Assembly: GCF_000172995.2 (NCBI RefSeq)
Contig: NC_014729.1
Coordinates: forward strand, 690,001-722,000
Direction of reading: 5' to 3'
DNA length: 32,000 nt
Source of the DNA: Halogeometricum borinquense DSM 11551
Lineage (GTDB): Archaea > Halobacteriota > Halobacteria > Halobacteriales > Haloferacaceae
In this document: positions 1 through 28,428 of the stretch, one piece after another
How positions within the stretch are numbered: the first letter of the stretch is position 1
Layout of the letters: each line of letters begins with the position of its first letter
Program-made: the position numbers and the translations under genes
The notes under the pieces: model-generated
The model's input: the letters and a program-made list of their open reading frames with translations, nothing else
Told to the model about the DNA's origin: nothing
Databases searched by the model: none

Positions 1-1212
1 ATACCTTCCTACTCCTTCATGTCTTCTACCCATATTTTCTCTTGGTGCTTCAGCTTGGTAGTGGTCCGGATTCTGGTACTCTTTCACGAATTCCTCTTCC
101 GATATAATTCCTTGTTGATAATACTCAAGAAGATATCTGTATTCTCGCTGTTTTTTGTGGCCCATATGCCATTGTTCTCCTCTACCTCTGTCTTTGTCCC
201 ACGTTAGCACTTCTTCTGTGTTTGGATCTCGAACCTTGTCGTCAATTCCCTCTGATCTTGCTCTGTTCCAGACTTCTTCGACTTGTCCTGGAGCGTACGG
301 TGGTCGATGATCAATACTGTATTTTTTCTGCTTATACTGTTCTGTGTCTTTTTCGGCGAATCGACCGATATTGTCCCGAGGCTGATCTCTCCACCGCTGA
401 ATGTGCACATCGGCTTTGTGCATCCGATAGATGCCGAGTTTCCCGCCGCTCATCACCCGCTGGGCCGTCTCTTCGGCTTCCCGTTCGAGACGCTCGTCAG
501 GATCAATTTCTAATTTCCCTTCTTGCGGGAGCATCGAGACGGCCCCACCTGTTTGCTGTCTCACATGCGCTAACTCGTGAGCGAGCAGGTGTTGACCTTC
601 TGTTGAAGAAGGGTCGTACTCGCCGTGGTTGAACGCGACATGATTTCCCACCGTGAACGCGCGAGCGTTGATATCCTCACAGGCGTTTGCGGCGCGTGAC
701 CCAGTATGGATACGCACGTCGTCCAAACTCTCGCCCATGCGCTCTTCCATCGCTTGTTGAATTGAGCTATCGAGTTGCTGGCCTGGCGAAGAAATCACGT
801 CACGAACCGAATCGGGGACTTGCGCGTTTCCAGATTTCGACGCCTCGTGGTGCGCGCCACGACTGCGCTGGACTGATTTAGCGTTCCGGCGCTCTATGTC
901 TTTGGGCACTTCGGCAGGACGCTGTTTTTGCCGTTCACGGAATGCACGCATGTCGCGCGGTTTGCCCATCGTGTCCACGGTCATGCCCTCGTCGGCCCAC
1001 TGCTGGACTTGGCCCGCGCCGTGTTGTTTGACAAGACGTTGGACTATCACCTCCAATCCATTCCGATACATGTCCATGCCGAAGCGCTGTTCGCAGCCCT
1101 GTGCGGTCAGCCGTCCACTGCGTTGCCGACGCGAGGAGTCCACGCGGTCCCGCTCGCTAGAAGGAGACCATTGGGTTTTCTTTTGCACCTCGTTCGCGGA
1201 GCGAAATCCCAT
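1..1212 (-). CDS. DUF4157-domain polymorphic toxin, paralog A, with a GH-E-like HNH/EndoVII nuclease C-terminal tip (3' end runs off the left window edge)
   Basis: Absent from the ORF track because no stop codon is reached inside the window. Manual reverse-complement translation from the ATG (complement of 1210-1212) gives MGFRSANEVQKK...GQQLDSSIQQAMEERMGESLDDVRIHTGSRAANACEDINARAFTVGNHVAFNHGEYDPSSTEGQHLLAHELAHVRQQTGG, a DUF4157-type signature with HExxH. This is followed by GIYRMHKADVHIQR and then ...LTWDKDRGRGEQWHMGHKKQREY...NPDHYQAEAPRENMGRRHEGVGRY. The frame stays open to base 1. The N-terminal ~270 codons are clearly paralogous to 22757..24664. Confidence 0.8.
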   Translation of the reverse strand, partial: MGFRSANEVQKKTQWSPSSERDRVDSSRRQRSGRLTAQGCEQRFGMDMYRNGLEVIVQRLVKQHGAGQVQQWADEGMTVDTMGKPRDMRAFRERQKQRPAEVPKDIERRNAKSVQRSRGAHHEASKSGNAQVPDSVRDVISSPGQQLDSSIQQAMEERMGESLDDVRIHTGSRAANACEDINARAFTVGNHVAFNHGEYDPSSTEGQHLLAHELAHVRQQTGGAVSMLPQEGKLEIDPDERLEREAEETAQRVMSGGKLGIYRMHKADVHIQRWRDQPRDNIGRFAEKDTEQYKQKKYSIDHRPPYAPGQVEEVWNRARSEGIDDKVRDPNTEEVLTWDKDRGRGEQWHMGHKKQREYRYLLEYYQQGIISEEEFVKEYQNPDHYQAEAPRENMGRRHEGVGRY

Positions 1213-1239
1213 CGTTCGATTTCGCTGACACAACCTTCG

Positions 1240-1248
1240 TATATAATT
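1240..1248 (-). promoter_or_regulatory. Putative archaeal TATA box for a leaderless transcript of toxin paralog A
   Basis: The plus strand reads tatataatt (minus strand aattatata), about 28 nt upstream of the ATG at 1212. The same element, catataatt, sits at the same distance upstream of the paralog at 24664. Confidence 0.45.
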
Positions 1249-7963: not shown

Positions 7964-8563
7964 TTATGCTTCGCTTTCGTCCACGTCGGTATCGTTCACG
8001 CCAGGTGCGGCGCTCACATCCACGTCTTCGGGTTCTTCCTGACCGCCGACGTGGAGTTCACCGGACTCGTCTTCGACGTACACGTCGTCTGCGAACCCGC
8101 CCACGGCGTGGGGGTGTTCAGGGTCGTCGAGTTTTTCGGGCGTCGATGGTGCTTCCGGGATGTCTTGGGTTCGGAAGTCTCCGAGGGGATTTGCGATGTC
8201 GATGTCGTACCGCTGGAAGAACTCCTCGTAGCGCTCGTAGTGGGCTTCGAGTTCGTCGGCGGGGAACTCCATCATCTCTGTCCACCCGTGGTTGTAGAAG
8301 TCGAAATTCGCCTGAATGTGGGTGATCTCGCGGGCTTTGGCCTCGGAGAACCCGGATTCGAGTGCTGCCACGTACGTGTCGAACGTGCAGTCGAAGAACG
8401 CCTCCATGTGGGGTTCGCGCTCCTCGCGGTGGTCGGGATCAGCTTTCTCACCGAACACGCGGACGTGCAGGCCGACTAGTTTATCCGTGGCGATATCCCC
8501 GACGACCGGCATCGTCAGCGCCTTTTTGGCGGCAAAGTGCCGGATGTTCTGTCGGATTTTCAT
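7964..8563 (-). CDS. Conserved haloarchaeal protein of unknown function with an acidic C-terminus
   Basis: 199 aa: MKIRQNIRHFAAKKALTMPVVGD...EITHIQANFDFYNHGWTEMMEFPADELEAHYERYEEFF. It looks like a conserved haloarchaeal DUF-type family. The exact family needs an HMM search. Confidence 0.75.
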   Translation of the reverse strand: MKIRQNIRHFAAKKALTMPVVGDIATDKLVGLHVRVFGEKADPDHREEREPHMEAFFDCTFDTYVAALESGFSEAKAREITHIQANFDFYNHGWTEMMEFPADELEAHYERYEEFFQRYDIDIANPLGDFRTQDIPEAPSTPEKLDDPEHPHAVGGFADDVYVEDESGELHVGGQEEPEDVDVSAAPGVNDTDVDESEA

Positions 8564-8683
8564 TTCACGTTCGCTTAGGACTGGAGTCTCTTGAAGGGAA
8601 CGCGTCGCGGAAGTCGTTTCCCACTTCTGACCCCCGCCGCGACAGTCGTGGATTTTTGTTATCAGGATGTTATATTGTCACAC

Positions 8684-9580
8684 ATGAGCGAAACAGACGC
8701 CGCCGAAGACCGCCTCCTCACAGACTGTGTGGACTGTCTCGATCCTGCGGAGGCGTTCGCCGTCGTCGGCAACGAGACGCGACTTGCGATCCTCGAAGCG
8801 CTCTGGCGGTCGGCGGACCGACCTGTGGCGTTCTCCGACCTCCGCCGCCGCGTGGGGATGCGCGACAGCGCACAGTTCAACTACCACCTCGGCAAGTTGA
8901 CCGGGCAGTTCGTCGCAAAGACCGACGAAGGCTACGAATTCAGACACGCAGGGGAGAAAGTCGTTCGCGCGGTCCTTTCGGGCAGTTTCAACGAGAATCC
9001 GACGGTCGAACCGTTCGAGGTGCCGGGCGAGTGTGCTGACTGCGGTGGAACGCTCACTGCCTCGTATGTGGACGAACATCTCTCGGTCGGCTGTCGAGAG
9101 TGCGGCCGCCTCCACGCCCACGCGCCGTTCCCGCCAGGCGGCCTGACCGACCGGTCGGACGAAGAAGTCGCACACGCGTTCGACCAGCGGGTTCGCCACT
9201 TGCACTGCCTTGCCGCTGATGGTGTCTGCCCGGAGTGTGGCGGCCGCATGGCGACGACACTGTCACAGGACGCAGGGCCGCTCGATGTGGCGGCCTGTTC
9301 GGTGCATCGCTGTGAGCAGTGCGACCACCGTATCCGGTCACCGGTCGGCTTGAGCCTCCTTGATCAGTCTGACGTCGTCGGATTCCACACGTCGCATACT
9401 GTCGATTTGAGGAGTCGTCCACACTGGACGTTCGAATGGTGCGTCGGCGACCGGACCACAGTTCTGGATGACGACCCGTGGCGGGTCCGCGTTGCTATCC
9501 CGCTGAACGAGGAGGAACTGCGCGTGACACTCGACAGCGAACTCGCTGTCGTCGCCGTCGAGCGACGCCGCCTCGACTGA
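8684..9580 (+). CDS. Winged-helix (ArsR-like) transcriptional regulator with a cysteine-rich (Zn-ribbon-like) C-terminal domain
   Basis: From the ATG at 8684: FAVVGNETRLAILEALW...FSDLRRRVGMRDSAQFNYHLGKLTGQFV, followed by the cysteine pairs CADCGG..CRECG and CPECGG..CEQCD. Confidence 0.85.
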   Translation: MSETDAAEDRLLTDCVDCLDPAEAFAVVGNETRLAILEALWRSADRPVAFSDLRRRVGMRDSAQFNYHLGKLTGQFVAKTDEGYEFRHAGEKVVRAVLSGSFNENPTVEPFEVPGECADCGGTLTASYVDEHLSVGCRECGRLHAHAPFPPGGLTDRSDEEVAHAFDQRVRHLHCLAADGVCPECGGRMATTLSQDAGPLDVAACSVHRCEQCDHRIRSPVGLSLLDQSDVVGFHTSHTVDLRSRPHWTFEWCVGDRTTVLDDDPWRVRVAIPLNEEELRVTLDSELAVVAVERRRLD

Positions 9581-9933
9581 GTTCGTGAACACTCAGTTCA
9601 GCCACCGAACCGACAAAATACAATTCAGAGTCCACTCTTTGTGTCGACACCTGCGCTCGCACTTGTGAGACGACACTGACGAAACGACTCTACACTCCTG
9701 CTCGAACTGATTCTGCCCCGACCTTCGGTGACCCGGTACGCCGCGGAACGCCCTCGCCGATTGTGACAATGACGGAGATGGGCCTGACGCTCGTCGGCAT
9801 CTCGGCGGCGTTCGTCGTTCCGGGTGTCGTACTCCGTCGGATTGGAGTCGGAGTGTATGTGACCGGATCACACCCGAACGATGGATGATGTGGATAGCAA
9901 TTCACATTAACCCCGGAGTCAAAGCTTCCGCGT

Positions 9934-11181
9934 ATGACCCAGTCGTACGTCATCATCGGCGACGGTATCGCGGGGAGTTCCGCCGCTGAAACCCTCCGCG
10001 AGGAGGAACCCGACGCCGACATCACCGTCGTCACAGACGAGGGGGAGGCACTGTACAATCGTATTCTCATCAAAGAGTTCGCCAAGGGGAAACTCCCGGA
10101 AGCGCCAATTTCCATTCACGAACCTGAGTGGTACGACGAGCGTGACATCGAACTCAAGCTTAACACCCTCGTCACCGACGTTGACCCCGACGGGCATACC
10201 ATCGAGACGCACGAGGGCGAGACGCTCTCGTGGGACAAACTGCTCGTCTCCGTCGGCGGAACGCCGACGCAACTGCCCGTCGATAACTCCGACGCCGAGG
10301 GCATCCACCACTTCTGGACGTTCCAGGACGCCCGTAAGATTCGCTCCCACATGGAAGAGGCCGACAGTTCCGTCGTCGTCGGTGCCGGCCTTCTCGGCAT
10401 CGACCTCGCGGCAATTACGGCCGCACAGGGTGTCGAAGGCAAATATCTCATGCGCGGCAACTGCTGGTGGCGCTACGCGCTCTCCGAGGAGGGTGGCGAA
10501 ATCATTCACAACGCGCTCCGTGAACGTAACGTCGAACCCGTCTTCGAGTCCGGTGTTGACCACTTCGAGGTCGATGACGACGGCCGAGTCACGACGGCGG
10601 TAGACCCCAACGGCGACGAGTACGACGCCGACTTCGTCGGCATCGCCATCGGGCTTGACTTTAACACGGAGATTCTGCAGGGAACCGACATCGAGTGCGA
10701 TAACGGTATTATCGTAGACGAATACATGCGGACGAACCACGAGGACGTGTTCGCGGCAGGCGACATCACGCAGTTCCACGACGTGATCCTCGGCGAGCGC
10801 GCCCAGAACGGTGCATGGGGCTCCGCGAAAGAGCAAGGCACCATCGCCGCGAAGAACATGGTCGATTACGGGACAGAGGAGTTCCGGTGGGTCTCTTCGT
10901 ACTCGATCACGCACTTTGACTTCCCGTTCCTCTCGTTCGGCCATCCGACGCTCGGCGACGACGAGGCCGAGGCGAAGTACTCCGACACCGAATGGCGTCG
11001 GCTGGCGTTCAAAGACGGAAAAATCGTCGGCGGCGTCCTCATCGGCGACCTCGCACCGCAGTCGAAGTACAAGAAGCTCATGCGCGAGGAACGCGTCGTT
11101 GCCGACCAGAAGGACGTACTGATGCAAGAGCAGTTCGAGATCGAAGATCTCGACCTCGAAGAAGAAGCCCCCGTCGAGTAA
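9934..11181 (+). CDS. FAD-dependent pyridine nucleotide-disulfide oxidoreductase
   Basis: 415 aa with SYVIIGDGIAGSSAAETL (FAD site), SVVVGAGLLGIDLA (NAD site) and VFAAGDIT. Confidence 0.9.
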   Translation: MTQSYVIIGDGIAGSSAAETLREEEPDADITVVTDEGEALYNRILIKEFAKGKLPEAPISIHEPEWYDERDIELKLNTLVTDVDPDGHTIETHEGETLSWDKLLVSVGGTPTQLPVDNSDAEGIHHFWTFQDARKIRSHMEEADSSVVVGAGLLGIDLAAITAAQGVEGKYLMRGNCWWRYALSEEGGEIIHNALRERNVEPVFESGVDHFEVDDDGRVTTAVDPNGDEYDADFVGIAIGLDFNTEILQGTDIECDNGIIVDEYMRTNHEDVFAAGDITQFHDVILGERAQNGAWGSAKEQGTIAAKNMVDYGTEEFRWVSSYSITHFDFPFLSFGHPTLGDDEAEAKYSDTEWRRLAFKDGKIVGGVLIGDLAPQSKYKKLMREERVVADQKDVLMQEQFEIEDLDLEEEAPVE

Positions 11182-11196
11182 TCGACGCCGAATTTC

Positions 11197-11268
11197 TCTT
11201 CACTACCGTTTCTTTCTTCACTGCCACTTTCCTCTTCACTACCCCTTTTCTCTTCGCTACTTCTCCCC
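11197..11268. repeat. Four tandem 18-bp imperfect repeats on an almost pure pyrimidine strand
   Basis: The four units begin at 11197, 11215, 11233 and 11251: TCTTCACTACCGTTTCTT, TCTTCACTGCCACTTTCC, TCTTCACTACCCCTTTTC and TCTTCGCTACTTCTCCCC. They lie in the convergent intergenic gap between 11181 and 11324. Confidence 0.75.
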
Positions 11269-11323
11269 GATTTGTATCCACTCATCGCGGAAACACCGGC
11301 GTTTCACCGCCGAGTTCGCATGT

Positions 11324-12427
11324 CTACGACGGTGTCGGCCGTGTACCCAGCGTCAACTCGACGGGTTGCGTAATTCCGTTTCTGTAAATCGTGAGTGGAA
11401 TCGTCTCTCCCGGACTGGTTTCCAGAGAGAGGTGTGCCAAGAGTTCGTTTCGGTCGCGGACGGGGACGCCATCGACTTCGAGGATAATATCGCTTCCAAC
11501 AGGGATTGACACACCGCGTCTTTCGACCGTCTCATCGCTTGCCCGTAGAATACCCTCCGCGGGACCGTCGTCGATAACCGTGACGACGATGACGCCGTTC
11601 GGCTCTGTCAGGTCATTCGCTTCGGCAACGAGTGGGCCGACAGGGGCGTAATCGACTCCCAAAAACGGGTGGTGATACTGTCCATTCTCGATGAGCGATG
11701 GGATGACGCGCCGGGAAAGGGCCGCAGAGATAGCAAACCCGATGTTTTCGGCACCACCTGCGCTGATGACGCCGACGACCGACCCTTCAGTGTTCACAAG
11801 GGGGCCTCCGCTGTTCCCCGGATTCACCGCTGCGTCAGTCTGTACGGCGTTCGGAATCGACACGCCGGTGATCGGGTTGAAAGCGGTGCGATTGACCCCG
11901 CTAATGATGCCTTTCGACATCGATCCCTTGAGACCGAACGGACTGCCGATAGCGCTGACCTCGGTGCCGATTTGCGGGGGTCGAAGACTGAACTGAAGCG
12001 GACGAACGCTCTCGGGGACGTGATCAACGTCAAGAATGGCGAGATCCGCGAACATGTCAGTACCGACGATTTCTGCACTCGTCCACTCACCGGTGGTGTA
12101 CTGGATATCGACCCGTTCGGCCCCGCTGACGACGTGTTCGTTCGTGACGACGGACGTGTCGTTGATCACGAAGGCAGAACCTTGCCCCCGTCTCTCTTGT
12201 CCGGTGACCGGATTTTCTACACCGAATGCACGCACGAGCGCGACGGCGTCAATCGCCGAATCGTACTTCGAGTCGTCAGAACTACGCCGGGGAGCCACCG
12301 CAGAAGTACTTGTCTCGGTGGCCGACCCGGTCGTTTTCCCTTGCGGGGCAGAACCAGTGTAGGTGCCAAACACTCCGGCACCCGCGGCGATGAGGAAGTC
12401 TCGGCGACTCAGTGGAAGATCACCCAT
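11324..12427 (-). CDS. Secreted trypsin-like serine protease (S1C, HtrA/DegP-like) with a C-terminal PDZ domain and a Tat-type signal
   Basis: The twin-arginine-type N-terminus reads LSRRDFLIAAGAG. The catalytic region includes VVTNEHVV ... DLAIL ... TDAAVNPGNSGGPLV. The PDZ-like C-terminus reads GDIILEVDGVPVRDRNEL. Confidence 0.9.
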   Translation of the reverse strand: MGDLPLSRRDFLIAAGAGVFGTYTGSAPQGKTTGSATETSTSAVAPRRSSDDSKYDSAIDAVALVRAFGVENPVTGQERRGQGSAFVINDTSVVTNEHVVSGAERVDIQYTTGEWTSAEIVGTDMFADLAILDVDHVPESVRPLQFSLRPPQIGTEVSAIGSPFGLKGSMSKGIISGVNRTAFNPITGVSIPNAVQTDAAVNPGNSGGPLVNTEGSVVGVISAGGAENIGFAISAALSRRVIPSLIENGQYHHPFLGVDYAPVGPLVAEANDLTEPNGVIVVTVIDDGPAEGILRASDETVERRGVSIPVGSDIILEVDGVPVRDRNELLAHLSLETSPGETIPLTIYRNGITQPVELTLGTRPTPS

Positions 12428-16416: not shown

Positions 16417-18057
16417 TCACACGCCGTCTGTGATATCTGAGACGGCGGTCATCAACTGCTCAGGTGTGGTGACCGTCCGTTCGCGGTCACCGAGGCTGAC
16501 GACTGCTTCGGAAGCCGAAACACCGTCGGCGTCGGGGACGACGACTTTCTCGTGGTCAGCGACGCGCAGGGCCGCACGGTGAAGGTCCGATCCTGCTGTC
16601 GCGCCGACAGCGACGACAAGCGTCGGACGCGTTACTCGTGCTGCGACTGATCCGTATCCGGCGACTTGGACGCCGATTCGGTCCCACGCACCCGCGAACG
16701 CGCCGATTGCTTCCTGTGCTGCGTCTTCGTATGGTTCCTCGCCCGTCGCCGCCGCGAGGTCACAGAGTGCGTTCGCCATCTCGACGTTCGCATCCAGCGG
16801 TCGAAGCGGCCGGTCGAGCAGTCCGGAACCCGACGCCAAGCCGTCTCTGAACGCACCGCCGTCCGCTTTGAGTTCGTCGATAGCCACGTCCGCAACGGCC
16901 TGTGCCCGGTCGAGGTACCAGTCGTCACCGAGGACCTGTCGTGCCCGGACGAACGCACTGACTGTCCGCGCGTGGTCTTCGAGGAGGTGTGTCTCGCCTG
17001 TTGTCTCGCCCGCGTCGAAATGCGTCACGTCCCCGTCATCGATGAGTCGCGTGTCGAGGAAGTCGAGCGTTCGAACCGCGTAGTCGCGGGCGGTGCCGTC
17101 GTCGGTGTACGCGGTGAGCGTCAAGAGGGCGTCGGCGGCGAGTGCGTTCGCACCCGCGTAGGCCGTCAGGTCTCGACGCGGTCCGGCGCTCTCCGCGCGC
17201 TCTTCGGCGGTCTGTCCGTAGTAGTTCTCGTCGCCGGGACCGACACTGCCGCCGAACGCCGCCCCGTTCCAGAGGCGGTCGGCGAGGAAGTCGCGGGTCT
17301 CCATCGCTGGGTTGAGGAGGTCATCGTCGCCCGTATAGAGGTAGCCGTTGGCGAACGCGCGCACGAGGGCGGCGTTCGAGTCGAGCAGTTTCTCGTGGTG
17401 TGGGTCCGACCAGTCGCGCCCGTCGGCGTAGCGGAAGAACCCGCCTTCCACGTCGTCAAATAGGGTTTCGGCTATCGTCCGGAGCGTCTCCACCGCCTGC
17501 CGCCGGGATCGTTTCAGGGCGAACTCTATCGTTCGCGGCATCGGGAACTTCGTCCCGTCACCCCATCCGGCGAAGCGGTCGTCGTATTTCTCGTCGAGTT
17601 GTCCGGCGAGGTGTTCTTCGATGTGCGACTCGACGGGACCTTCGGGCGTCGGGTCGTCTGCGAGCGCGCGCGGCACACGGCCGGACGAGTCGCCCTTCTC
17701 GGACCACGTCTCGCGCACTCGGTCGAGCACCTGCCGCATCCCGTCGGGACCGAGATACATCGCTCCCGTGATGAGTTCGCCCGACGGCGTACAGAATACT
17801 GTCGAGGGGAACCCGCCCATGTTGTAGCGTTCGCGGACGCGCGGATGACGGTCTACGTCCACTCGGACGGGGACGAAGTCGTCGTTCACGTTCGCGGCGA
17901 TGCGCGGTTCGCCGTACGTCTCGACATCCATCTCGTGACACCCGTCGCACCATGTCGCCGTAAGCGACAGCAACACGGGTTTCTCGTCCGCTCGGGCCTC
18001 CTCGAACGCCTCCGGTCCCCACTTGTGCCACTCGACGCGCGTCTCGTCGTCCGTCAT
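16417..18057 (-). CDS. Thioredoxin-domain protein (DUF255 / YyaL-like, with a C-terminal six-hairpin glycosidase-like domain)
   Basis: 546 aa with VEWHKWGPEAFEEARADEKPVLLSLTATWCDGCHEMDVETY... Confidence 0.9.
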   Translation of the reverse strand: MTDDETRVEWHKWGPEAFEEARADEKPVLLSLTATWCDGCHEMDVETYGEPRIAANVNDDFVPVRVDVDRHPRVRERYNMGGFPSTVFCTPSGELITGAMYLGPDGMRQVLDRVRETWSEKGDSSGRVPRALADDPTPEGPVESHIEEHLAGQLDEKYDDRFAGWGDGTKFPMPRTIEFALKRSRRQAVETLRTIAETLFDDVEGGFFRYADGRDWSDPHHEKLLDSNAALVRAFANGYLYTGDDDLLNPAMETRDFLADRLWNGAAFGGSVGPGDENYYGQTAEERAESAGPRRDLTAYAGANALAADALLTLTAYTDDGTARDYAVRTLDFLDTRLIDDGDVTHFDAGETTGETHLLEDHARTVSAFVRARQVLGDDWYLDRAQAVADVAIDELKADGGAFRDGLASGSGLLDRPLRPLDANVEMANALCDLAAATGEEPYEDAAQEAIGAFAGAWDRIGVQVAGYGSVAARVTRPTLVVAVGATAGSDLHRAALRVADHEKVVVPDADGVSASEAVVSLGDRERTVTTPEQLMTAVSDITDGV

Positions 18058-20798: not shown

Positions 20799-21227
20799 TT
20801 AGAAGCTGATGCCGTACCCGTTCTTTTTTGCGAACTCAATGAGGTTAATGCACATCTCAATCGTTCGATCTACGATCTCCATTCGATCGTCGTCAAGTTG
20901 ATCCTCGAGGTTCTTGCGGGCAACTTCAAGTGACGTGACGAACGTATCGAGTCCTTCTATATCTCGGACTACTCCGTCCTCGTCACGATACTTGAATAAT
21001 ATCTCTGCTATTGATGGCTCTCCCGTATCTACTACCTGTGTTGTTGGATTTTTATAGATCATAAACACATCATCCTGCCGTAAGTTCTCTTTAAAGTGCT
21101 TATATTCGGAGATTTCATCGAGGGAGTCGTCGTATTTTGAGTTTTCAACATGGTAACGGTAGAACTGTTTACCAGTTGCAAGCGTCTCCTTCTCGTCAGG
21201 GACAACTAGTGAGAATGTACTACTCAT
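20799..21227 (-). CDS. Putative immunity protein for the orphan toxin tip
   Basis: 142 aa, low GC, starting 4 nt downstream of the orphan toxin cassette. No signal peptide and no recognised family. The role is inferred from position only. Confidence 0.6.
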   Translation of the reverse strand: MSSTFSLVVPDEKETLATGKQFYRYHVENSKYDDSLDEISEYKHFKENLRQDDVFMIYKNPTTQVVDTGEPSIAEILFKYRDEDGVVRDIEGLDTFVTSLEVARKNLEDQLDDDRMEIVDRTIEMCINLIEFAKKNGYGISF

Positions 21228-21231
21228 ATTC

Positions 21232-21984
21232 TCACCACGGGCTCACGCTTTTGGCTACTCTATACATCAGCTCAAGCACCTCATTGGTCCACCTGTACGT
21301 TTCAACTTGATCAGAGTCTATGTCTTCGTGTTCACCAGTGTTGTCCATTCCCCTCGGGACAATAGCACATGCCTCAGTGTTCGCGAAGTCGTCTCCTGAC
21401 AGATCCAATACGGACTTGTTCAATCGATCCGGATTTTCAATCTTAGGAACACCATTTTCGTCTTGAGGTATTCCTGAGTTCTGTATATCGGCGATCTTAT
21501 TTTCCGCTTGTTTGATCGCCTCTCTTGCATGATCGTCATTACTTGAGCCAGTTTTTTCTTCGACGGCTTTCACAACTTCCCCCTTCTCCTTGTCCATGAT
21601 TAGCTTGTCAATTTCTGGGTTTTCTTCAGTGTATACATGAAATCCCTTAGCCATATTATCGTGAGCCGGAACTACTACAAGTTCATCTCTCTCGTCAAAG
21701 TCCTTAACAAAGCTTTCAACAAGATTTTTCTCCGGATGTGACGAGAGAACTTCCCCAACGTCACCTTGGTCCCCACCGAGATCTTTGGGTGAGTCACCGA
21801 TTCTCCAGAGGTCCTCGAAGAACTCATCGTATTTGTCATCGTCTACGGTCTGTTCTAACTCAGCGAGTAACTCGTCACTCAATCCCATCTCTTTGAGCGC
21901 CACCAGTGGTGACGCCACAGTATCCCGATCAGGGAGGTTGTTCCAGCGGGGCATCCGCTGAACGTGCACGTCTGAGTGCTCCAT
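21232..21984 (-). CDS. Orphan (displaced) polymorphic-toxin C-terminal cassette
   Basis: The 250-aa ORF begins MEHSDVHVQRMPRW..., exactly the junction motif found inside the 635-aa toxin (...HRMEHSDVHVQRVPQ...). 35 nt are identical (21956-21990 versus 23829-23863). It has no DUF4157 module of its own, and the remainder is unique and low GC. Confidence 0.75.
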   Translation of the reverse strand: MEHSDVHVQRMPRWNNLPDRDTVASPLVALKEMGLSDELLAELEQTVDDDKYDEFFEDLWRIGDSPKDLGGDQGDVGEVLSSHPEKNLVESFVKDFDERDELVVVPAHDNMAKGFHVYTEENPEIDKLIMDKEKGEVVKAVEEKTGSSNDDHAREAIKQAENKIADIQNSGIPQDENGVPKIENPDRLNKSVLDLSGDDFANTEACAIVPRGMDNTGEHEDIDSDQVETYRWTNEVLELMYRVAKSVSPW

Positions 21985-21998: not shown

Positions 21999-22766
21999 CT
22001 ATTCGCGTGAATGAATAGCGAGATCAGTGAGATGGTCCTCTTCTTCAAGTGTTGACTCCGATAGAGAGTCTGCAAAGAACTGAATTCTGTCTGGTTCCAG
22101 CTCTTCTTTGAATTGATTGAGACATGTAACAAGCCGCCCTCTATTTATTGCACCAATTGTAGTATCCTTGAACCAGATATCTGTGTCTGTATAGACGCTT
22201 ACTAAAATACTTGTCATTGGACTCGAATCATCGTAGCCATCTATGTCATGGCTAACCTCAAATCGCAGAGGATCAATTGAAGAGCTGCCAAGGATGTCGT
22301 CTTCATTACGTCTATTAACGACCTTATAGTATTGATCGTTCTCAGAACAAAGATATCGGTTTTCACCACTAATATAGAATTTTGTCAATCCCGACCCGAA
22401 CTTAACGTTGGAAACGATCCGTTGATAGCCATCTTCCGTCGTGGATTCGCTAAACTGCTCAAATATCTCTGATACGTCTAATCCATCTTGATCTTCATAC
22501 TCATAGCTTTCTGCGATAAGATCAGTGGACTCGAAGTCATATATCTGATCCAGTGATACCTCATTTGGGTATGTGAATTCTCCAACTTCTATGCTAGTCG
22601 GTCGATAAAAACAGCCAAATGCATCAGATATGAGTGAAATTACAGTAGTAACATTCTGGTGTGATTCTTGAACTGATTCTCCGACATCATCAATTCGAAA
22701 TGTCCATGATGCATCTAAGTGAGGATTTGAGACGATGAAATCAGTATTAGGGATCATTACTGCCAT
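21999..22766 (-). CDS. Putative immunity protein for the DUF4157 / PD-(D/E)xK-like toxin
   Basis: 255 aa, acidic, low GC. Its ATG lies inside the last codons of the toxin gene (minus strand ATGGCAGTAA, a 10-nt overlap). No family recognised; the role is inferred from position. Confidence 0.65.
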   Translation of the reverse strand: MAVMIPNTDFIVSNPHLDASWTFRIDDVGESVQESHQNVTTVISLISDAFGCFYRPTSIEVGEFTYPNEVSLDQIYDFESTDLIAESYEYEDQDGLDVSEIFEQFSESTTEDGYQRIVSNVKFGSGLTKFYISGENRYLCSENDQYYKVVNRRNEDDILGSSSIDPLRFEVSHDIDGYDDSSPMTSILVSVYTDTDIWFKDTTIGAINRGRLVTCLNQFKEELEPDRIQFFADSLSESTLEEEDHLTDLAIHSRE

Positions 22767-24664
22767 TGCACCTCATTTTTGTTTATTTTACCTGTGATAA
22801 CCTTGTTTCCGACCACAATACGGACAGCATCAATGGGTACTGATCCAAATTGGATTTTCTTCATTATGTACGATTCAATGTACCGTTTTGCGTCCTCTAG
22901 CGGCTTACCTCTCAATTCTCCTTTTTCATCAATAGGGCTTTTGAAATTTAACTCAACTATCCTTTCGTGATGATCAACATTAAACTCATTAGATACGTCT
23001 TCAATTTTCTTACTAACAGAATCAGATTCAAACTTGTCTATAGTCTTACCTATCTCACCACTAATGAAATCTTTATCGACGTATCCTTTCTTTGGACTCT
23101 TTTGTTCTGCCCAGATGGCTTTATTCCCCTCCACAGCCAAGATGTCAATTCGATCTTCCCTGTCCGGTTCCATCTCAACATATTCTGACTGTCTTACGTA
23201 TGCAGCGAGTCGTTCTGTCTCAAATGCCACACCATCAAATACACTGTTCGGATCGTTATTTGACAACGATCCAATTGAATCGTCACCATCAACGACTGTT
23301 GTTGCGTCCCGCTGGGCGACATCCATCGTTTCTTCGAGTCGGGCCAGGTACTCCAGAATTCGTTCTGACCCATGTCCCTCAGCGATCTCTGTCAATAAGT
23401 TTCGTCGCCACTTTCCAAGTGTTGCAGCATGGTACTCGGAGAAGTCCTCGACAGTAGTGCCCATTACTGCACTGAACAGGTCTGTTCCACGTCTCTCCGC
23501 AATTTCGAGGGCGGATGAATCACCGGTAGCGATCACCTGGTCCACAGCCGAAGCGTTTCCTTCAGTACGGTACCCCAACAAGTCATTCAGTTGTTCTTGC
23601 TGGTCGGATGAGAGCGATCCCGAGTCATCGATAGCTAGATCCTCAGCAAAGTCGAAGCCTCGGGGGGTATCCGTACCATTGGCATTCAGCAGTGCCGCCA
23701 AAAGTTCCGGGCGAAGGCTCTCTGAGCCCTCACTGTAAGACTCTAGTAACGCTCTAATTTTCTCCTCTTGCTCTTCGTCAATGTCGAACTTAGAGAGTGC
23801 AAGCCCCAATCGGGCCGATTGAGGAACACGCTGAACGTGCACGTCTGAGTGCTCCATGCGATGCACGCCGATTTTCCCACCTTGCATCACGCGCTGGGCG
23901 GTTTCTTCGGCTTCCCGCTCTAAGCGCGGGTCAGGATCAATCTCTAACTCGCCTTCTTGGGGAAGCATCGACACCGCGCCACCAGTTTGTTGGCGCACGT
24001 GCGCTAACTCGTGGGCGAGAATATGCTGGCCTTCAGCACTTGATGGATCGTATTCGCCGTGGTTGAACGCGATGTGATTCCCGACGGTAAACGCGCGGGC
24101 GTTGATATCCTCGCAAGCTTTCGCGGCCGATGGACCCGTATGGATGCGTACATCGCCCAGATTGTCGCCCATCCGATCTTCCATCGCACGCTGGATGCTC
24201 GTGTCGAGTTGCTGGCCCGGCGAGGAAATCACGTCTCGTACGGAGTCAGGCACGTTCGTGTCGCCAGCTTTCGACGCCTCGTGGTGCGCGCCGCGACTAC
24301 GCTGGACAGATTTAGCGTTCCGGCGTTCGATGTCCTTTGGGACTTCTGCGGGACGCTGTTTTTGCCGTTCACGGAACGCGCGCATGTCGCGTGGTTTGCC
24401 CATCGTATCGACGGTCATTCCCTCGTCGGCCCATTCTCGGACTTGACCTGCGCCGTGTTTCTTGGCCAGTCGCTGAATCTTCGTATCCAGCCCGTCCATG
24501 TATATTTCGACGCCGAATCGTGATTCACACTCTTGGGGTGTTAGCGAACCACCGCCACTCCGGCCTCGATCACGACCTGAGCCTCCCGTCAGCTCTTGGA
24601 TCGAGGGGACAGACGAGGACCGATCACCCTCACGGGTTCGTTCCTCTGTAGATCGAAATCCCAT
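22757..24664 (-). CDS. DUF4157-domain polymorphic toxin, paralog B, with a PD-(D/E)xK-like C-terminal tip
   Basis: 635 aa. The DUF4157-type signature is GQQLDTSIQRAMEDRMGDNLGDVRIHTGPSAAKACEDINARAFTVGNHIAFNHGEYDPSSAEGQHILAHELAHVRQQTGG. The junction reads GVHRMEHSDVHVQR. The C-terminal region FETERLAAYV...DRIDILAVEGNKAIWAEQKSPKK fits E...D...E-x-K. GC drops visibly 3' of the junction. Confidence 0.9.
   Translation of the reverse strand: MGFRSTEERTREGDRSSSVPSIQELTGGSGRDRGRSGGGSLTPQECESRFGVEIYMDGLDTKIQRLAKKHGAGQVREWADEGMTVDTMGKPRDMRAFRERQKQRPAEVPKDIERRNAKSVQRSRGAHHEASKAGDTNVPDSVRDVISSPGQQLDTSIQRAMEDRMGDNLGDVRIHTGPSAAKACEDINARAFTVGNHIAFNHGEYDPSSAEGQHILAHELAHVRQQTGGAVSMLPQEGELEIDPDPRLEREAEETAQRVMQGGKIGVHRMEHSDVHVQRVPQSARLGLALSKFDIDEEQEEKIRALLESYSEGSESLRPELLAALLNANGTDTPRGFDFAEDLAIDDSGSLSSDQQEQLNDLLGYRTEGNASAVDQVIATGDSSALEIAERRGTDLFSAVMGTTVEDFSEYHAATLGKWRRNLLTEIAEGHGSERILEYLARLEETMDVAQRDATTVVDGDDSIGSLSNNDPNSVFDGVAFETERLAAYVRQSEYVEMEPDREDRIDILAVEGNKAIWAEQKSPKKGYVDKDFISGEIGKTIDKFESDSVSKKIEDVSNEFNVDHHERIVELNFKSPIDEKGELRGKPLEDAKRYIESYIMKKIQFGSVPIDAVRIVVGNKVITGKINKNEVQWQ
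23829..23863. repeat. 35-nt exact repeat, copy 2 (junction inside the full-length toxin gene)
   Basis: Identical to 21956-21990. On the minus strand it encodes HRMEHSDVHVQR. Confidence 0.9.
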
Positions 24665-24689: not shown

Positions 24690-24698
24690 CATATAATT
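24690..24698 (-). promoter_or_regulatory. Putative TATA box for a leaderless transcript of toxin paralog B
   Basis: catataatt lies about 27 nt upstream of the ATG at 24664. It matches in sequence and spacing the element upstream of paralog A (1240-1248). Confidence 0.45.
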
Positions 24699-24754
24699 CC
24701 TCTCCGTTCGAGACCGAACGTTTCTGTACGGACGAGGACAGTGCGTGAGCGCCG

Positions 24755-25991: not shown

Positions 25992-26822
25992 TTAGTTCCG
26001 TAGTTCCTTTTCACTGGCCAATCCATCCATGAACCTACGTCCTAAGTCAGATACCTCATACTGTTTGTACATATCCCGATCCAGCAGGCCCTTATTCAAC
26101 AACAATTCGCATCTTTTTTCTGTTAATTCTATGCTCTTTCCTACTTTTTTTGAAATTTGGTCAACCCTCTGTGCCTGATCTTCTTGTTGAACTGCTTCAA
26201 TAATTCTATAATCAATAACCTCCATCCATGGTATTTTCGTATGGGACCGAAGTGGACTGAGTCTATATAATCTGAGAAAATAGTGGGCGGTATGACGTTT
26301 CCCCTCAGTAGCTAAATATTTAAAATCTGGAAGTATTGTTGAGATATACGGGATAGATTGGTAAACTAGTGTGAGTACCAGAATCAATATTATGGAAGAA
26401 ATCAAATACGATTTACCTCCTCCGTAATATCCAGTTATCACTCCGGAGGCTAATCCTATGAACAATAGCAGTGTAGTAAGTGTAGAGAAGAATAGACTAG
26501 CATCTGTGAGCCGAGAGAAAGAGGATATCTCTCTGGCGTTGTAATCGGACCAGCCCGAATCTGCTCCTTTCGGCTTCTTGTGTGTCTGAGATACTAGAAC
26601 TAGAGTGACCGAGAATATCCACAGCAATCCACCAATAATTGTTGCATAAGAATTGACTGCATTAGAGACCGAGACTGACTTAATGTTCGAATTTGAAACG
26701 ACTGCAAGGGCAGTAAGAAAGGCAGAAATCTGGATTACGTTATATTTTTGAATACTGTCTAATCGGTCCATCAAATGCTCATACCGAGGGTCAACGGAGG
26801 TTTGATCCTCGTCACTTCCCAT
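25992..26822 (-). CDS. Membrane-anchored winged-helix protein (N-terminal multi-TM region plus C-terminal wHTH)
   Basis: 276 aa, low GC. There are about four hydrophobic helices (e.g. IIGGLLWIFSVTLVLV, SSIILILVLTLVY). The C-terminus reads VIDYRIIEAVQQEDQAQRVDQISKKVGKSIELTEKRCELLLNKGLLDR, which is MarR/wHTH-like. Confidence 0.7.
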   Translation of the reverse strand: MGSDEDQTSVDPRYEHLMDRLDSIQKYNVIQISAFLTALAVVSNSNIKSVSVSNAVNSYATIIGGLLWIFSVTLVLVSQTHKKPKGADSGWSDYNAREISSFSRLTDASLFFSTLTTLLLFIGLASGVITGYYGGGKSYLISSIILILVLTLVYQSIPYISTILPDFKYLATEGKRHTAHYFLRLYRLSPLRSHTKIPWMEVIDYRIIEAVQQEDQAQRVDQISKKVGKSIELTEKRCELLLNKGLLDRDMYKQYEVSDLGRRFMDGLASEKELRN

Positions 26823-26947
26823 AGAAAATAAATTCTGTAGTATTTTATATATGCTGTGATCATTTCTCCTATGAAACGGAAACTAAAATATCACCTCCGC
26901 AGAAACCTCCAGAATTAAGTCATTCTCAGTACAGTTTTTGATTGGGA

Positions 26948-27745
26948 ATGGCGACTCCAACGACTATTCCGATCAGCGTACTTTCTATCCTCTTGCTCCT
27001 AGCTCCGGGATTGGTAGGTCTTCAAATATTTTTCAAATATGCTCAGAGGAGACCTTCCCCATCACGTACTAAGTGGGTTGCTTGGAGCGCTCTCACCAGT
27101 TTAATTTCGCTTGTATTGCTCTATTTATTCTCGGGATTTTATTTACTGAACCTAAGAAGGATTGCCAGTAGTCTGAGTGGATTTCTTGGTATAATTTCTA
27201 TCAATGGTATTGAACTATCTGCCACAAGTGCTTTATTCTTGTACCTATCCCATATATTTGTTATATTCGTTGGATCATCTCTTCTTGGGTTGTTTGATCG
27301 AAATATTCTAAACAAAGACGAAATTCTTGATCCACGTGAGCCATGGGAATACGCATTTGATGAAATTCCGGTAGATGGTGAAGAATTAGATATCTATCTT
27401 CAAGATGGTGTTCAACTACGAGGAGAGTTCAATGAGAGAGCGTGGGATAGCTCCAAACGCGAATTATTCCTTGAAAATCCGTATAAAGTTGAATCAGATG
27501 GCAAGGGTGGACAATCTCTATCGGATTTGGGTAGAAGCATTTTAATTCAATCTAAGGCAGTTTCGCATATTGTGTTTGCTACTGAAGATCCCGACCAGAA
27601 ACGAATAGAATCTATTGAGGTCACTTCTGAAACAGCAGGAGAAATAGAAAACCTGATTAACGAAGTATTGACCCCTGACGTTACTGGCTATGAAGATCAA
27701 GAAAAGAGAGACAACAAGCAGGATGACGAAGAGGATGCGGATTAA
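26948..27745 (+). CDS. Hypothetical membrane protein with a soluble acidic C-terminal domain
   Basis: Low GC. ATG at 26948 (the track uses TTG at 26942). The N-terminal helices read ISVLSILLLLAPGLVGLQIFF, ALTSLISLVLLYLFSGFYLL and ALFLYLSHIFVIFVGSSLLGLF. The tail reads QEKRDNKQDDEEDAD. Confidence 0.7.
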   Translation: MATPTTIPISVLSILLLLAPGLVGLQIFFKYAQRRPSPSRTKWVAWSALTSLISLVLLYLFSGFYLLNLRRIASSLSGFLGIISINGIELSATSALFLYLSHIFVIFVGSSLLGLFDRNILNKDEILDPREPWEYAFDEIPVDGEELDIYLQDGVQLRGEFNERAWDSSKRELFLENPYKVESDGKGGQSLSDLGRSILIQSKAVSHIVFATEDPDQKRIESIEVTSETAGEIENLINEVLTPDVTGYEDQEKRDNKQDDEEDAD

Positions 27746-27746
27746 T

Positions 27747-28202
27747 TCAAATTTTGTCCACTATATCTAATTCACTTTTTTCGGTATAGTCTGGATATTT
27801 CTGATATACATACCGTAATAATCTATCCAAAGGGGTATCTTGATATCTCTTTTTTATACTCTCTGCAGCTTTGAGCACGTGGTCAACATCTCTGTTCTCA
27901 TCGTTTATGAGGGACTTGACCACTCTTCTCCCCTCATCAGTTAGTGAATAGATGTATTTCTCATTACCCGATACAGTAGTTTCAGTACGTCTTTCTATGA
28001 TTCCCTTATTCTCTAATGTCTTGATTGAACCAGCTAATGACGGTGAAAATGGTCCGTATTTGTCAGACTTAAATTCGTGTAGCTCAGAGATGTCTTTTTC
28101 TTTTTGAGTTAAAAATGCCAGCTTTTGAAAACGAGTAGCTCCCTCTATCTCCGCGTTATTATTTACATACATCAATGCCAGAGGGAGTAAGACATCAGCC
28201 AT
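27747..28202 (-). CDS. YwgA-like / Panacea(DUF4065)-like protein with a wHTH
   Basis: From the ATG at 28202: MADVLLPLALMYV...GATRFQKLAFLTQKEKDISELHEFKSDKYGPFSPSLAGSIKTLENKGIIERRTE...GNEKYIYSLTDEGRRVV. The K-x-Q-K-hydrophobic ... Y-G-P-(F/Y)-S pattern followed by a PadR-like wing matches my recollection of Bacillus YwgA-type proteins. Confidence 0.7.
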   Translation of the reverse strand: MADVLLPLALMYVNNNAEIEGATRFQKLAFLTQKEKDISELHEFKSDKYGPFSPSLAGSIKTLENKGIIERRTETTVSGNEKYIYSLTDEGRRVVKSLINDENRDVDHVLKAAESIKKRYQDTPLDRLLRYVYQKYPDYTEKSELDIVDKI

Positions 28203-28428
28203 TGTTTCTGATCTCTTGCTTCTTCTTATATAATATACTCCAACCCAGAGTCCTAAGAGTGTTGCTGTATCTCGATTCTTCGGATACACCTTCTGTCTGA
28301 GAAGCTCAGAACCACTTCCACCGAACCTTCACTCCGAATCCACGAATCGGATTTACTACAACCCAGACCTTCAGTCACCAGTACAATGCGTTCGAGCTAC
28401 CGGCACGCCAGGTCAGGGGGAGCCTGAA

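Follow-up and report, generated by a model that had tools for sequence, protein, structure and literature searches.

The question raised by the left end of the 32,000-nucleotide stretch of Halogeometricum borinquense DSM 11551 analysed here (contig NC_014729.1, positions 690,001 to 722,000; hereafter the window) is what kind of protein is encoded by a minus-strand gene running across this end, and how that protein would be put to use. The gene, referred to as toxin 1, shares an N-terminal module containing the DUF4157 domain with a second gene of the window, toxin 2, and continues into a C-terminal tip unrelated to that of toxin 2. Its product is very probably a polymorphic effector of the contractile injection system (CIS) of H. 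borinquense, the “archaeal T6SS” (type VI secretion system), which is encoded on the plasmid pHBOR03 outside the window. In its sequence features the locus follows the pattern of polymorphic toxins, combining a constant N-terminal part, unrelated tips and a downstream presumed immunity gene that co-varies with the tip.

The minus-strand translation of positions 1-1248 is free of stop codons, and the ATG at 1210-1212 opens a frame starting with MGFRSANEV that continues to base 1 of the window over 404 codons, as stated in a preliminary description of this DNA. The letters of the tip peptide quoted in that description were also read correctly, judging from the translation and from the full gene in contig L003 (GCA_000337855.1, AOHT01000032.1). 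L003 is one of the public contigs carrying the locus, which were found via a look-up of the product of the neighbouring pdxS gene; it is 100% identical to the first 12 kb of the window, and window base 1 corresponds to L003 position 8576. The last 14 codons and the stop codon of toxin 1 lie to the left of the window (L003 8531-8575), resulting in a full length of 418 amino acids. By exact-sequence look-up the protein was identified as ADQ66343.1 / ELY27667.1 / WP_006055088.1 / UniProt E4NNI9 of H. borinquense DSM 11551; going by the sequence of accessions, its locus tag would be Hbor_07450 or Hbor_07460. The gene had been described as missed by the track of open reading frames (ORFs). This applies to the mechanical ORF list, from which the frame is absent because it runs off the window end and end-truncated ORFs are dropped by the lister, but not to the public databases, as the gene is already annotated in GenBank, RefSeq (under the name “DUF4157 domain-containing protein”) and UniProt.

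Residues 1-273 represent the constant module of toxin 1, in which a basic leader, predicted to be disordered, precedes a helical domain and a DUF4157/PVC-metallopeptidase domain with the HExxH motif. The DUF4157 domain named in the preliminary description was recovered by the Pfam profile PF13699 with an E value of 1.1e-31 and 109.2 bits against a cut-off of 22, covering model positions 1-78 of 79. Among 78 relatives H212, E213 and H216 of the HELAH motif are nearly invariant, together with three glutamates located 27-31 residues downstream of this motif (E243, E245 and E247). The full-length AlphaFold model (mean predicted local distance difference test, pLDDT, of 80) comprises a confident alpha/beta DUF4157 domain at residues 134-254, preceded by helices at residues 37-126 (pLDDT 77-97) and by a leader with a pLDDT of about 40 over residues 1-31. 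No Pfam model was found in the profile search to cover the helical domain at residues 37-133, which is conserved in an alignment of 110 relatives and shares every residue from 76 to 120 with toxin 2. Neither toxin 1 nor toxin 2 is matched by an NCBIfam model, and a sequence search of the PDB with the constant module returned nothing useful. The Foldseek search of the PDB gave no confirmation of a zincin fold for the DUF4157 domain, the top match of the full-length model being the minimal metallopeptidase abylysin at a non-significant E value of 1.9. The leader may be regarded as a candidate loading signal; N-terminal signals on the cargo of extracellular contractile injection systems (eCIS) have been described (PMC11297309).

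The constant module recurs in toxin 2 with 197 of 239 identical residues (82%) in an ungapped BLASTP alignment of residues 35-273 with residues 41-279 (E 6e-148). At the nucleotide level BLASTN gave 79.4% identity over 647 ungapped nucleotides (window 1041-395 versus 24475-23829), and an independent repeat search paired 395-694 with 23829-24128. Apart from MGFRS the first approximately 34 codons of both genes do not align, and there is an offset of 6 codons. The earlier statement that the first approximately 270 codons are collinear and about four-fifths identical is thus right as to the identity, but the collinearity applies to codons ~35-273 only and does not start at codon 1. The similarity ends exactly after codon 273, the arginine of the motif DVHIQR (window 394-396), and the codons that follow are unrelated. 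As had been noted, the sequence becomes AT-rich beyond this motif: the GC content amounts to 0.58 in the shared N-terminal module and to 0.44 in the tip of toxin 1, the window average being 0.56. No Pfam match was obtained for the tip of toxin 2 (residues 280-635), PF13699 being the sole Pfam domain of this protein. Taking up the proposal that the genome carries at least two DUF4157 modules with different nuclease tips, several DUF4157 modules with different tips are indeed present, the count of paralogs being based on named database matches, but the nuclease label is supported for the tip of toxin 1 only, because that of toxin 2 has no Pfam match.

The 110 aligned relatives are strongly conserved between approximately residue 65 and residue 273, conservation collapses after VH[VI]QR, and the motif DVHVQR or DVHIQR recurs in front of unrelated tips in many proteins and loci. 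The tips of 20 proteins from other genomes were assigned to 11 BLAST clusters. In the structural model the junction falls within a flexible linker just behind the HExxH domain, which is modelled with low confidence (residues 261-290, pLDDT 41-53). The corresponding DNA motif was detected in three copies in the window, at 395-411 in toxin 1, at 23829-23845 in toxin 2 and at 21956-21972 in a third ORF. Both paralogs and strain alleles diverge at the DVHIQR junction, which is likely to be a recombination point.

A further match to the DNA motif, with one mismatch, was observed on the plus strand at 16783-16799 outside any toxin gene; the number of matches to be expected by chance is about 0.1. 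The tips of two further proteins, P0015 of H. borinquense and P0051 of a Haloarcula sp., start with DVHVQR-TPAEVSVENN and hence contain the tetrapeptide VENN. VENN is the known border of the tip in CdiA; its occurrence in the two haloarchaeal tips may be due to chance.

The tip of toxin 1 consists of a linker and a domain of the GH-E family of HNH/EndoVII nucleases. This family had been suggested beforehand for the tip, and the assignment is borne out by a match to the whole Pfam model PF14410 (positions 1-68 of 68; E 4.5e-26; 91.7 bits against a cut-off of 25), which rises to 96.2 bits when the tip is searched alone. All residues of the defining “GH, E, N, E” series are retained (G351-H352, E388, N393 and E399), and the comparison with homologous tips revealed that W348-H-M-G351-H352 and Y385 are kept as well. 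Measured against 150 homologous tips, toxin 1 retains every residue conserved in at least 90% of them (among others R303, P304, W315, D329, P330, W338, R344, W348, M350, G351, H352, Y358, F375, Y385, E388 and N393) with the exception of G325 and P387, and E399, conserved in 87%, is also kept. Position 396 is occupied by arginine in toxin 1 and by histidine in 64% of the tips, and the haloarchaeal subfamily consensus N-x-S-G-x-H-E-G has its histidine at position 398.

Homologous tips were collected with HMMER in an exhaustive search, the query being the part of the tip that lies in the window (E <= 1e-3). This yielded 590 representative proteins of 115-2868 amino acids in which the match is always found at the extreme C-terminus. 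Among 62 long homologues that were scanned, all contain the GH-E domain, 16 contain DUF4157 and 8 contain RHS repeats, further domains being DUF6531, PT-HINT and PAAR-like domains. The occurrence of the same C-terminal tip on different heads is the signature of a shared polymorphic-toxin tip. Residues 301-410 reach a pLDDT of 93-98 in the full-length AlphaFold model, and a model of the tip alone (pLDDT 90.8; predicted template modelling score, pTM, 0.82) shows a confident fold on its own. Its family membership suggests that the tip acts as a nuclease on DNA.

An immunity gene had been predicted just to the left of the window, and an ORF of 164 amino acids was indeed found there in L003, its ATG overlapping the stop codon of toxin 1 by 8 nucleotides (ATGGCTGA). 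The encoded protein is very acidic (isoelectric point, pI, of 4.4) and matches ankyrin-repeat models (Ank_2, E 2.9e-23); 262 nucleotides separate its gene from a DUF1405 gene. An ankyrin gene directly follows the toxin gene in each of the four distinct GH-E loci that were examined (L003, L007, L008 and L009). Besides L003 these are loci of Haloferax sp. S1W (L007), of a Halobaculum sp. (L008) and a second locus of H. borinquense (L009), in which a DUF4157 and GH-E toxin is likewise followed by an ankyrin protein of 156-170 amino acids; a second strain (L004) has an arrangement identical to that of L003. Among these loci the tips are 41-57% and the ankyrin proteins 33-48% identical, compared with 76-81% for the constant modules of Halogeometricum and Haloferax. 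In the Haloferax locus a string of further immunity-type genes follows downstream, predicted to encode a SUKH protein, a second ankyrin protein and a Colicin_immun protein. The immunity gene co-varies with the tip, ankyrin genes following GH-E tips and a Colicin_immun gene following a colicin-D tip. The ankyrin protein presumably protects its producer against toxin 1.

A different downstream family was noticed in the haloarchaeal DUF4157 loci L010-L045. In 24 of 34 cases the gene starting within about 40 nucleotides of the toxin stop codon belongs to one family, the members of which typically comprise ~300-345 amino acids (two are shorter), have no Pfam match and share the conserved stretches ARRFARWHVY and CQIRD.Y.GMG..PP; none is encoded in the window. 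The tips upstream fall into several BLAST clusters, and the members of the family may be either immunity proteins against a single, very divergent family of tips or accessory proteins that do not depend on the tip.

The comparison of strains revealed that the locus is polymorphic. In the contigs L001 (CP048739) and L002 (JAXCMF01) of other H. borinquense strains, the DNA flanking the toxin site is 97% identical to the window. At the pdxS/DUF1405 site the 1134 bp comprising tip, ankyrin gene and 3' spacer (L003 7836-8969) are replaced by 717 bp, and the right edge of the replaced segment (L003 8970, window 395) coincides with the DVHIQR junction. The replacing segment continues from DVHIQR into a Colicin_D domain (E 8e-21), followed by a gene for a Colicin_immun protein (E 2.6e-13). 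The toxin gene of L001 and L002 (~8530-9787) is broken by a deletion of 277 nucleotides, which causes a frameshift and eliminates residues 140-232 with the HExxH motif, and the immunity gene is intact. L003 and L004, both of which carry the GH-E/ankyrin allele, have identical ankyrin genes and differ in their coding sequence solely by R396G. This substitution affects the N-x-x-x-x-H-E motif at the C-terminal end of the nuclease domain. As a separate observation, L001 and L002 contain between pdxS and usp an insertion of 908 bp with fragments of a Y1 (IS200-like) transposase (11010-11918, corresponding to about window position 2435), which is absent from the window.

Upstream of toxin 1 a TATA-box-like element, AATTATAT, was detected. 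An alignment of five upstream regions revealed that toxin 2 and relatives from other genomes are likewise preceded by this element, with TGTCA further downstream. In several paralogs AATTATAT is located about 30-35 nucleotides before the ATG and is followed by TGTCA and then by ATGGGATTTCG, the sites being 1241-1248 and 24695-24702 (both minus strand) in the window and the upstream regions of L007 and L009. The element is a putative promoter, and the common pattern suggests that the promoter is shared and that the toxin family is possibly co-regulated.

As regards delivery, CIS structural genes between the two toxins were considered and ruled out by the housekeeping content of the 21 kb in question, which lack any CIS component and carry ordinary genes (pdxS, usp, genes for a GHMP kinase and a MATE transporter, folE2 and others). 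No CIS gene is present in the window as a whole, and the link to an injection system comes from outside it. A module 84% identical to the constant module of toxin 1 is located inside a CIS gene cluster on the plasmid pHl5678-1 of Haloferax larsenii, between VgrG, PAAR, gp25 and baseplate genes on one side and sheath, tube, DUF4255 and AAA genes on the other; a second DUF4157 gene is found at the end of this cluster. H. borinquense has been shown to assemble membrane-bound contractile sheaths encoded on pHBOR03 (Hbor_38640-38890; Zachs et al. 2024, PMC11566945) and to kill H. volcanii on contact in a CIS-dependent manner (PMC11566945). Five DUF4157 proteins (Hbor_01880, 02990, 07690, 38720 and 38900) were enriched in the secretome of the wild type compared with a sheath mutant (PMC11566945), and the primer used for Hbor_07690 in that study matches the ATG of toxin 2 at 24664. 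Hbor_02990, 38740, 38760 and 38900, three of which carry DUF4157, proved toxic to H. volcanii, and in each case the downstream gene provided rescue (PMC11566945). More generally, DUF4157 was found to be highly specific for CIS loci with an odds ratio of 2614, and the PVC-metallopeptidase, which equals DUF4157, was described as a CIS-specific core domain N-terminal of toxins (Geller et al. 2021, PMC8213781).

Taken together, the constant module would recruit toxin 1 to the injection machine, and sheath contraction would deliver it on contact into a neighbouring haloarchaeon, where the GH-E tip would cut the DNA of the recipient. The ankyrin protein would bind and block the nuclease in the producing cells and their kin. 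Cassettes of tip and immunity gene would be exchanged by recombination at the conserved junction, and we propose that different alleles therefore occur at one chromosomal site among strains.

Several points weigh against this interpretation. Toxin 1 is not among the five DUF4157 proteins of the CIS-dependent secretome and is mentioned neither in PMC11566945 nor in its supplements; as far as its delivery is concerned, we argue by analogy with the paralogs. For DUF4157 differing roles are under consideration in the literature, namely in loading, as a chaperone or as a self-cleaving peptidase (PMC8213781, PMC11297309). Danov et al. 2024 (PMC11297309) discussed that it may help in loading or act as a chaperone, and its metalloprotease motif was dispensable for the toxicity of the cargo Cgo1 according to Xu et al. 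2022, as cited in PMC11297309. In the tip, aspartate replaces G325 and alanine replaces P387 at positions conserved in more than 90% of the homologues. The Foldseek search against the PDB yielded no significant match for either the full-length or the tip-only model; for the latter nothing was retrieved below an E value of 3, the HNH effector Cap5 (TM 0.37) and endonuclease I (TM 0.34) being non-significant matches with E values above 4. Together with abylysin these matches are suggestive of the respective folds and confirm neither a zincin nor an HNH fold. Since no sequence relative of the tip was found in the PDB, the Pfam profile is the one source for the HNH fold. Finally, the locus can decay, as two other strains have a broken ortholog of toxin 1.

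The absence from a secretome in which five paralogs were detected, the loss of the HExxH region and of the frame in the ortholog of L001 and L002 next to an intact immunity gene, and the location of R396G, the sole difference between the two strains with the GH-E allele, inside the C-terminal GH-E motif would also fit a stored allele, intact but silent or decaying, that is not normally expressed or loaded and is kept mainly for ankyrin protection against the same toxin from other strains. We consider this improbable. The ORF of toxin 1 is complete and none of the residues that define GH-E and HExxH is missing, it keeps the upstream TATA-like element of the family and the coupled immunity gene, and two plasmid-borne toxins of demonstrated toxicity were likewise absent from the secretome, which was attributed by the authors to condition-specific production (PMC11566945). 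That the toxin 1/ankyrin pair works without the injection system, as a toxin-antitoxin (addiction) module stabilising a chromosomal islet or with export by another route, would agree with its separation from toxin 2 by about 21 kb of housekeeping genes, with the lack of a nearby CIS gene in the window and with the tight gene overlap also typical of toxin-antitoxin pairs, but is highly improbable given the CIS specificity of DUF4157, the module of the same type in the Haloferax larsenii CIS cluster, the CIS-dependent secretion of the paralog with the 82% identical module in the same strain, and the toxin-first, immunity-second order and C-terminal tip polymorphism, which are features of polymorphic toxins.

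Within the interpretation as an injected effector a more far-reaching joint proposal can be formulated, namely that the pdxS-proximal site represents a strain-discriminating injection-system allele and that DVH[VI]QR serves both as recombination point and as the site at which the DUF4157 peptidase cuts and frees the tip after delivery. Self-cleavage by the metallopeptidase as a means of freeing the toxin was proposed by Zhang et al. 2012 (PMC3482391). At the pdxS-proximal site DSM 11551 carries the GH-E tip with the ankyrin gene, and the strains of L001 and L002 carry the broken colicin-D tip with its immunity gene and no ankyrin gene. We regard the joint proposal as tentative and its two parts as rather unlikely to hold together; if the site does discriminate strains, killing would occur within the species and not only of other genera.

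Table. Features of the toxin 1 locus and of related elements in the window.
Feature	Position	Strand	Basis or remark
Toxin 1 coding sequence, codons 1-404 of 418	1..1212	minus	open frame
Variable tip, residues 274-404 in window (of 274-418): linker, then GH-E domain	1..393	minus	GC 0.44
GH-E HNH/EndoVII nuclease domain (PF14410), residues 324-399	16..243	minus	Pfam profile
Junction motif DVHIQR, residues 268-273	394..411	minus	last conserved stretch of constant module
DUF4157 / eCIS_core / PVC-metallopeptidase domain (PF13699), residues 146-223	544..777	minus	Pfam profile
HELAH (H212-E-L-A-H216), zinc-peptidase HExxH motif of DUF4157	565..579	minus	sequence and family conservation
Conserved helical domain, residues 37-133	814..1104	minus	basic (pI 10.1), part of constant module
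Leader, residues 1-36	1105..1212	minus	family-wide MGFRS start, then variable, basic (pI 11.6), predicted disordered
AATTATAT, TATA-box-like element	1241..1248	minus	29-36 nt upstream of toxin 1 ATG
Orphan tip cassette, 250-aa ORF (ADQ66365.1), starts MEHSDVHVQR-MPRWNNLPDR...	21232..21984	minus	junction motif and third kind of tip
Toxin 2 = Hbor_07690 (ADQ66366.1; 635 aa in RefSeq)	22757..24664	minus	constant module as toxin 1, unrelated 356-aa tip

The third ORF with the junction motif is an orphan tip cassette at the locus of toxin 2. After the junction its tip shows 68-72% identity to those of two other toxins of H. borinquense, P0016 and P0036 (Hbor_28990), and 35 nucleotides of the ORF are 100% identical to the junction of toxin 2. 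It is followed by an ORF of 142 amino acids (20799-21227, minus strand), which shows 44% identity to the partner gene that comes immediately after a DUF4157 toxin gene in Haloferax elongans (L016). Between the orphan tip and toxin 2 an ORF of 255 amino acids without a Pfam match (21999-22766, minus strand) overlaps the toxin 2 stop codon by 10 nucleotides. No downstream partner is listed for Hbor_07690 by Zachs et al. 2024 (PMC11566945), and this ORF is therefore the obvious candidate for the immunity gene of toxin 2. It has a RefSeq accession only (WP_144018700.1) and, unlike its neighbours, no GenBank ADQ accession. The resulting order of toxin 2, 255-amino-acid partner, orphan tip and partner of the orphan tip is an arrangement in which recombination at the junction could exchange one tip for another. 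No orphan cassette was found at the locus of toxin 1, and no further junction motif is present in L003; orphan cassettes are common in polymorphic toxin systems and not obligatory.

Adjoining toxin 2, positions 25992-28289 form an AT-rich islet (GC 0.38-0.42), the genes of which match a CARF-associated HTH domain (weakly), DUF6338 and a PadR/HxlR-like winged helix; this islet may represent foreign or defence-related DNA. Elsewhere in the window three overlapping copies of a 30-nucleotide unit (TTTCTCTTCACTACCGTT-like), spaced 18 nucleotides apart, were observed at 11193-11258 in the spacer between a pyridine-nucleotide oxidoreductase gene and a trypsin/PDZ protease gene.

The architecture of toxin 1, its organism and the delivery route are already known from the literature, and the gene is ordinary because it belongs to a published family, is annotated correctly and comes from the strain in which the system was characterised. 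It nevertheless offers a well-defined test case, as among the H. borinquense effectors examined here it is the one whose enzymatic tip and immunity partner are both clear, and natural alternative alleles occur at the same site in sister strains. Intraspecific competition by means of the archaeal injection system, as well as the functions of the DUF4157 module and of its junction motif, would therefore be directly testable.

The closest known counterparts are the PVC-type toxins described by Zhang, de Souza, Anantharaman, Iyer and Aravind (2012), whose table joins Tox-GH-E with the PVC-metallopeptidase, Imm-SuFu and Imm-ank, with PVC-type delivery and a range including the euryarchaeota, and who named H. 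borinquense as holding several such toxins with variable tips (PMC3482391). Toxin 1 resembles these toxins in its N-terminal DUF4157, its C-terminal GH-E domain and the Imm-ank gene downstream. There is no difference in kind, and the text of that study does not name the toxin 1 gene; the junction motif DVH[VI]QR, the strain allele replacement and the orphan cassette are added here to its picture. With the DUF4157 effectors of the archaeal T6SS (Hbor_02990, Hbor_38740, Hbor_38900, Hbor_07690 and others; PMC11566945) toxin 1 shares the strain, the constant module (82% identity to Hbor_07690) and the presence of a downstream partner, and a related module is found within a CIS cluster of a sister genus. 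Its tip, however, is clearly assignable as an enzyme, whereas InterPro gave “no obvious toxin candidates” for the cluster-borne effectors (PMC11566945).

Bacterial eCIS toxins with an N-terminal DUF4157 (PMC8213781, PMC11297309) are alike in architecture, as is the case in the 16 of the 62 long GH-E proteins mentioned above. Bacterial eCIS are particles released from the cell, in many cases without associated immunity genes, whereas the machine of H. borinquense is membrane-anchored and contact-dependent and immunity genes are the rule. The CdiA-CT/CdiI and Rhs-CT/RhsI modules are demarcated by the motifs VENN or PxxxxDPxGL and are accompanied by orphan cassettes. Similar to these modules, a short motif borders the constant part and the tip of toxin 1, strain-specific pairs of tip and immunity gene occur at one locus, and orphans that keep the motif are located downstream, in this case at the toxin 2 locus. 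Unlike CdiA-CT and Rhs-CT, toxin 1 combines DUF4157 with a phage-tail-like machine instead of a two-partner secretion filament or an Rhs cage, uses another motif and belongs to an archaeal host.

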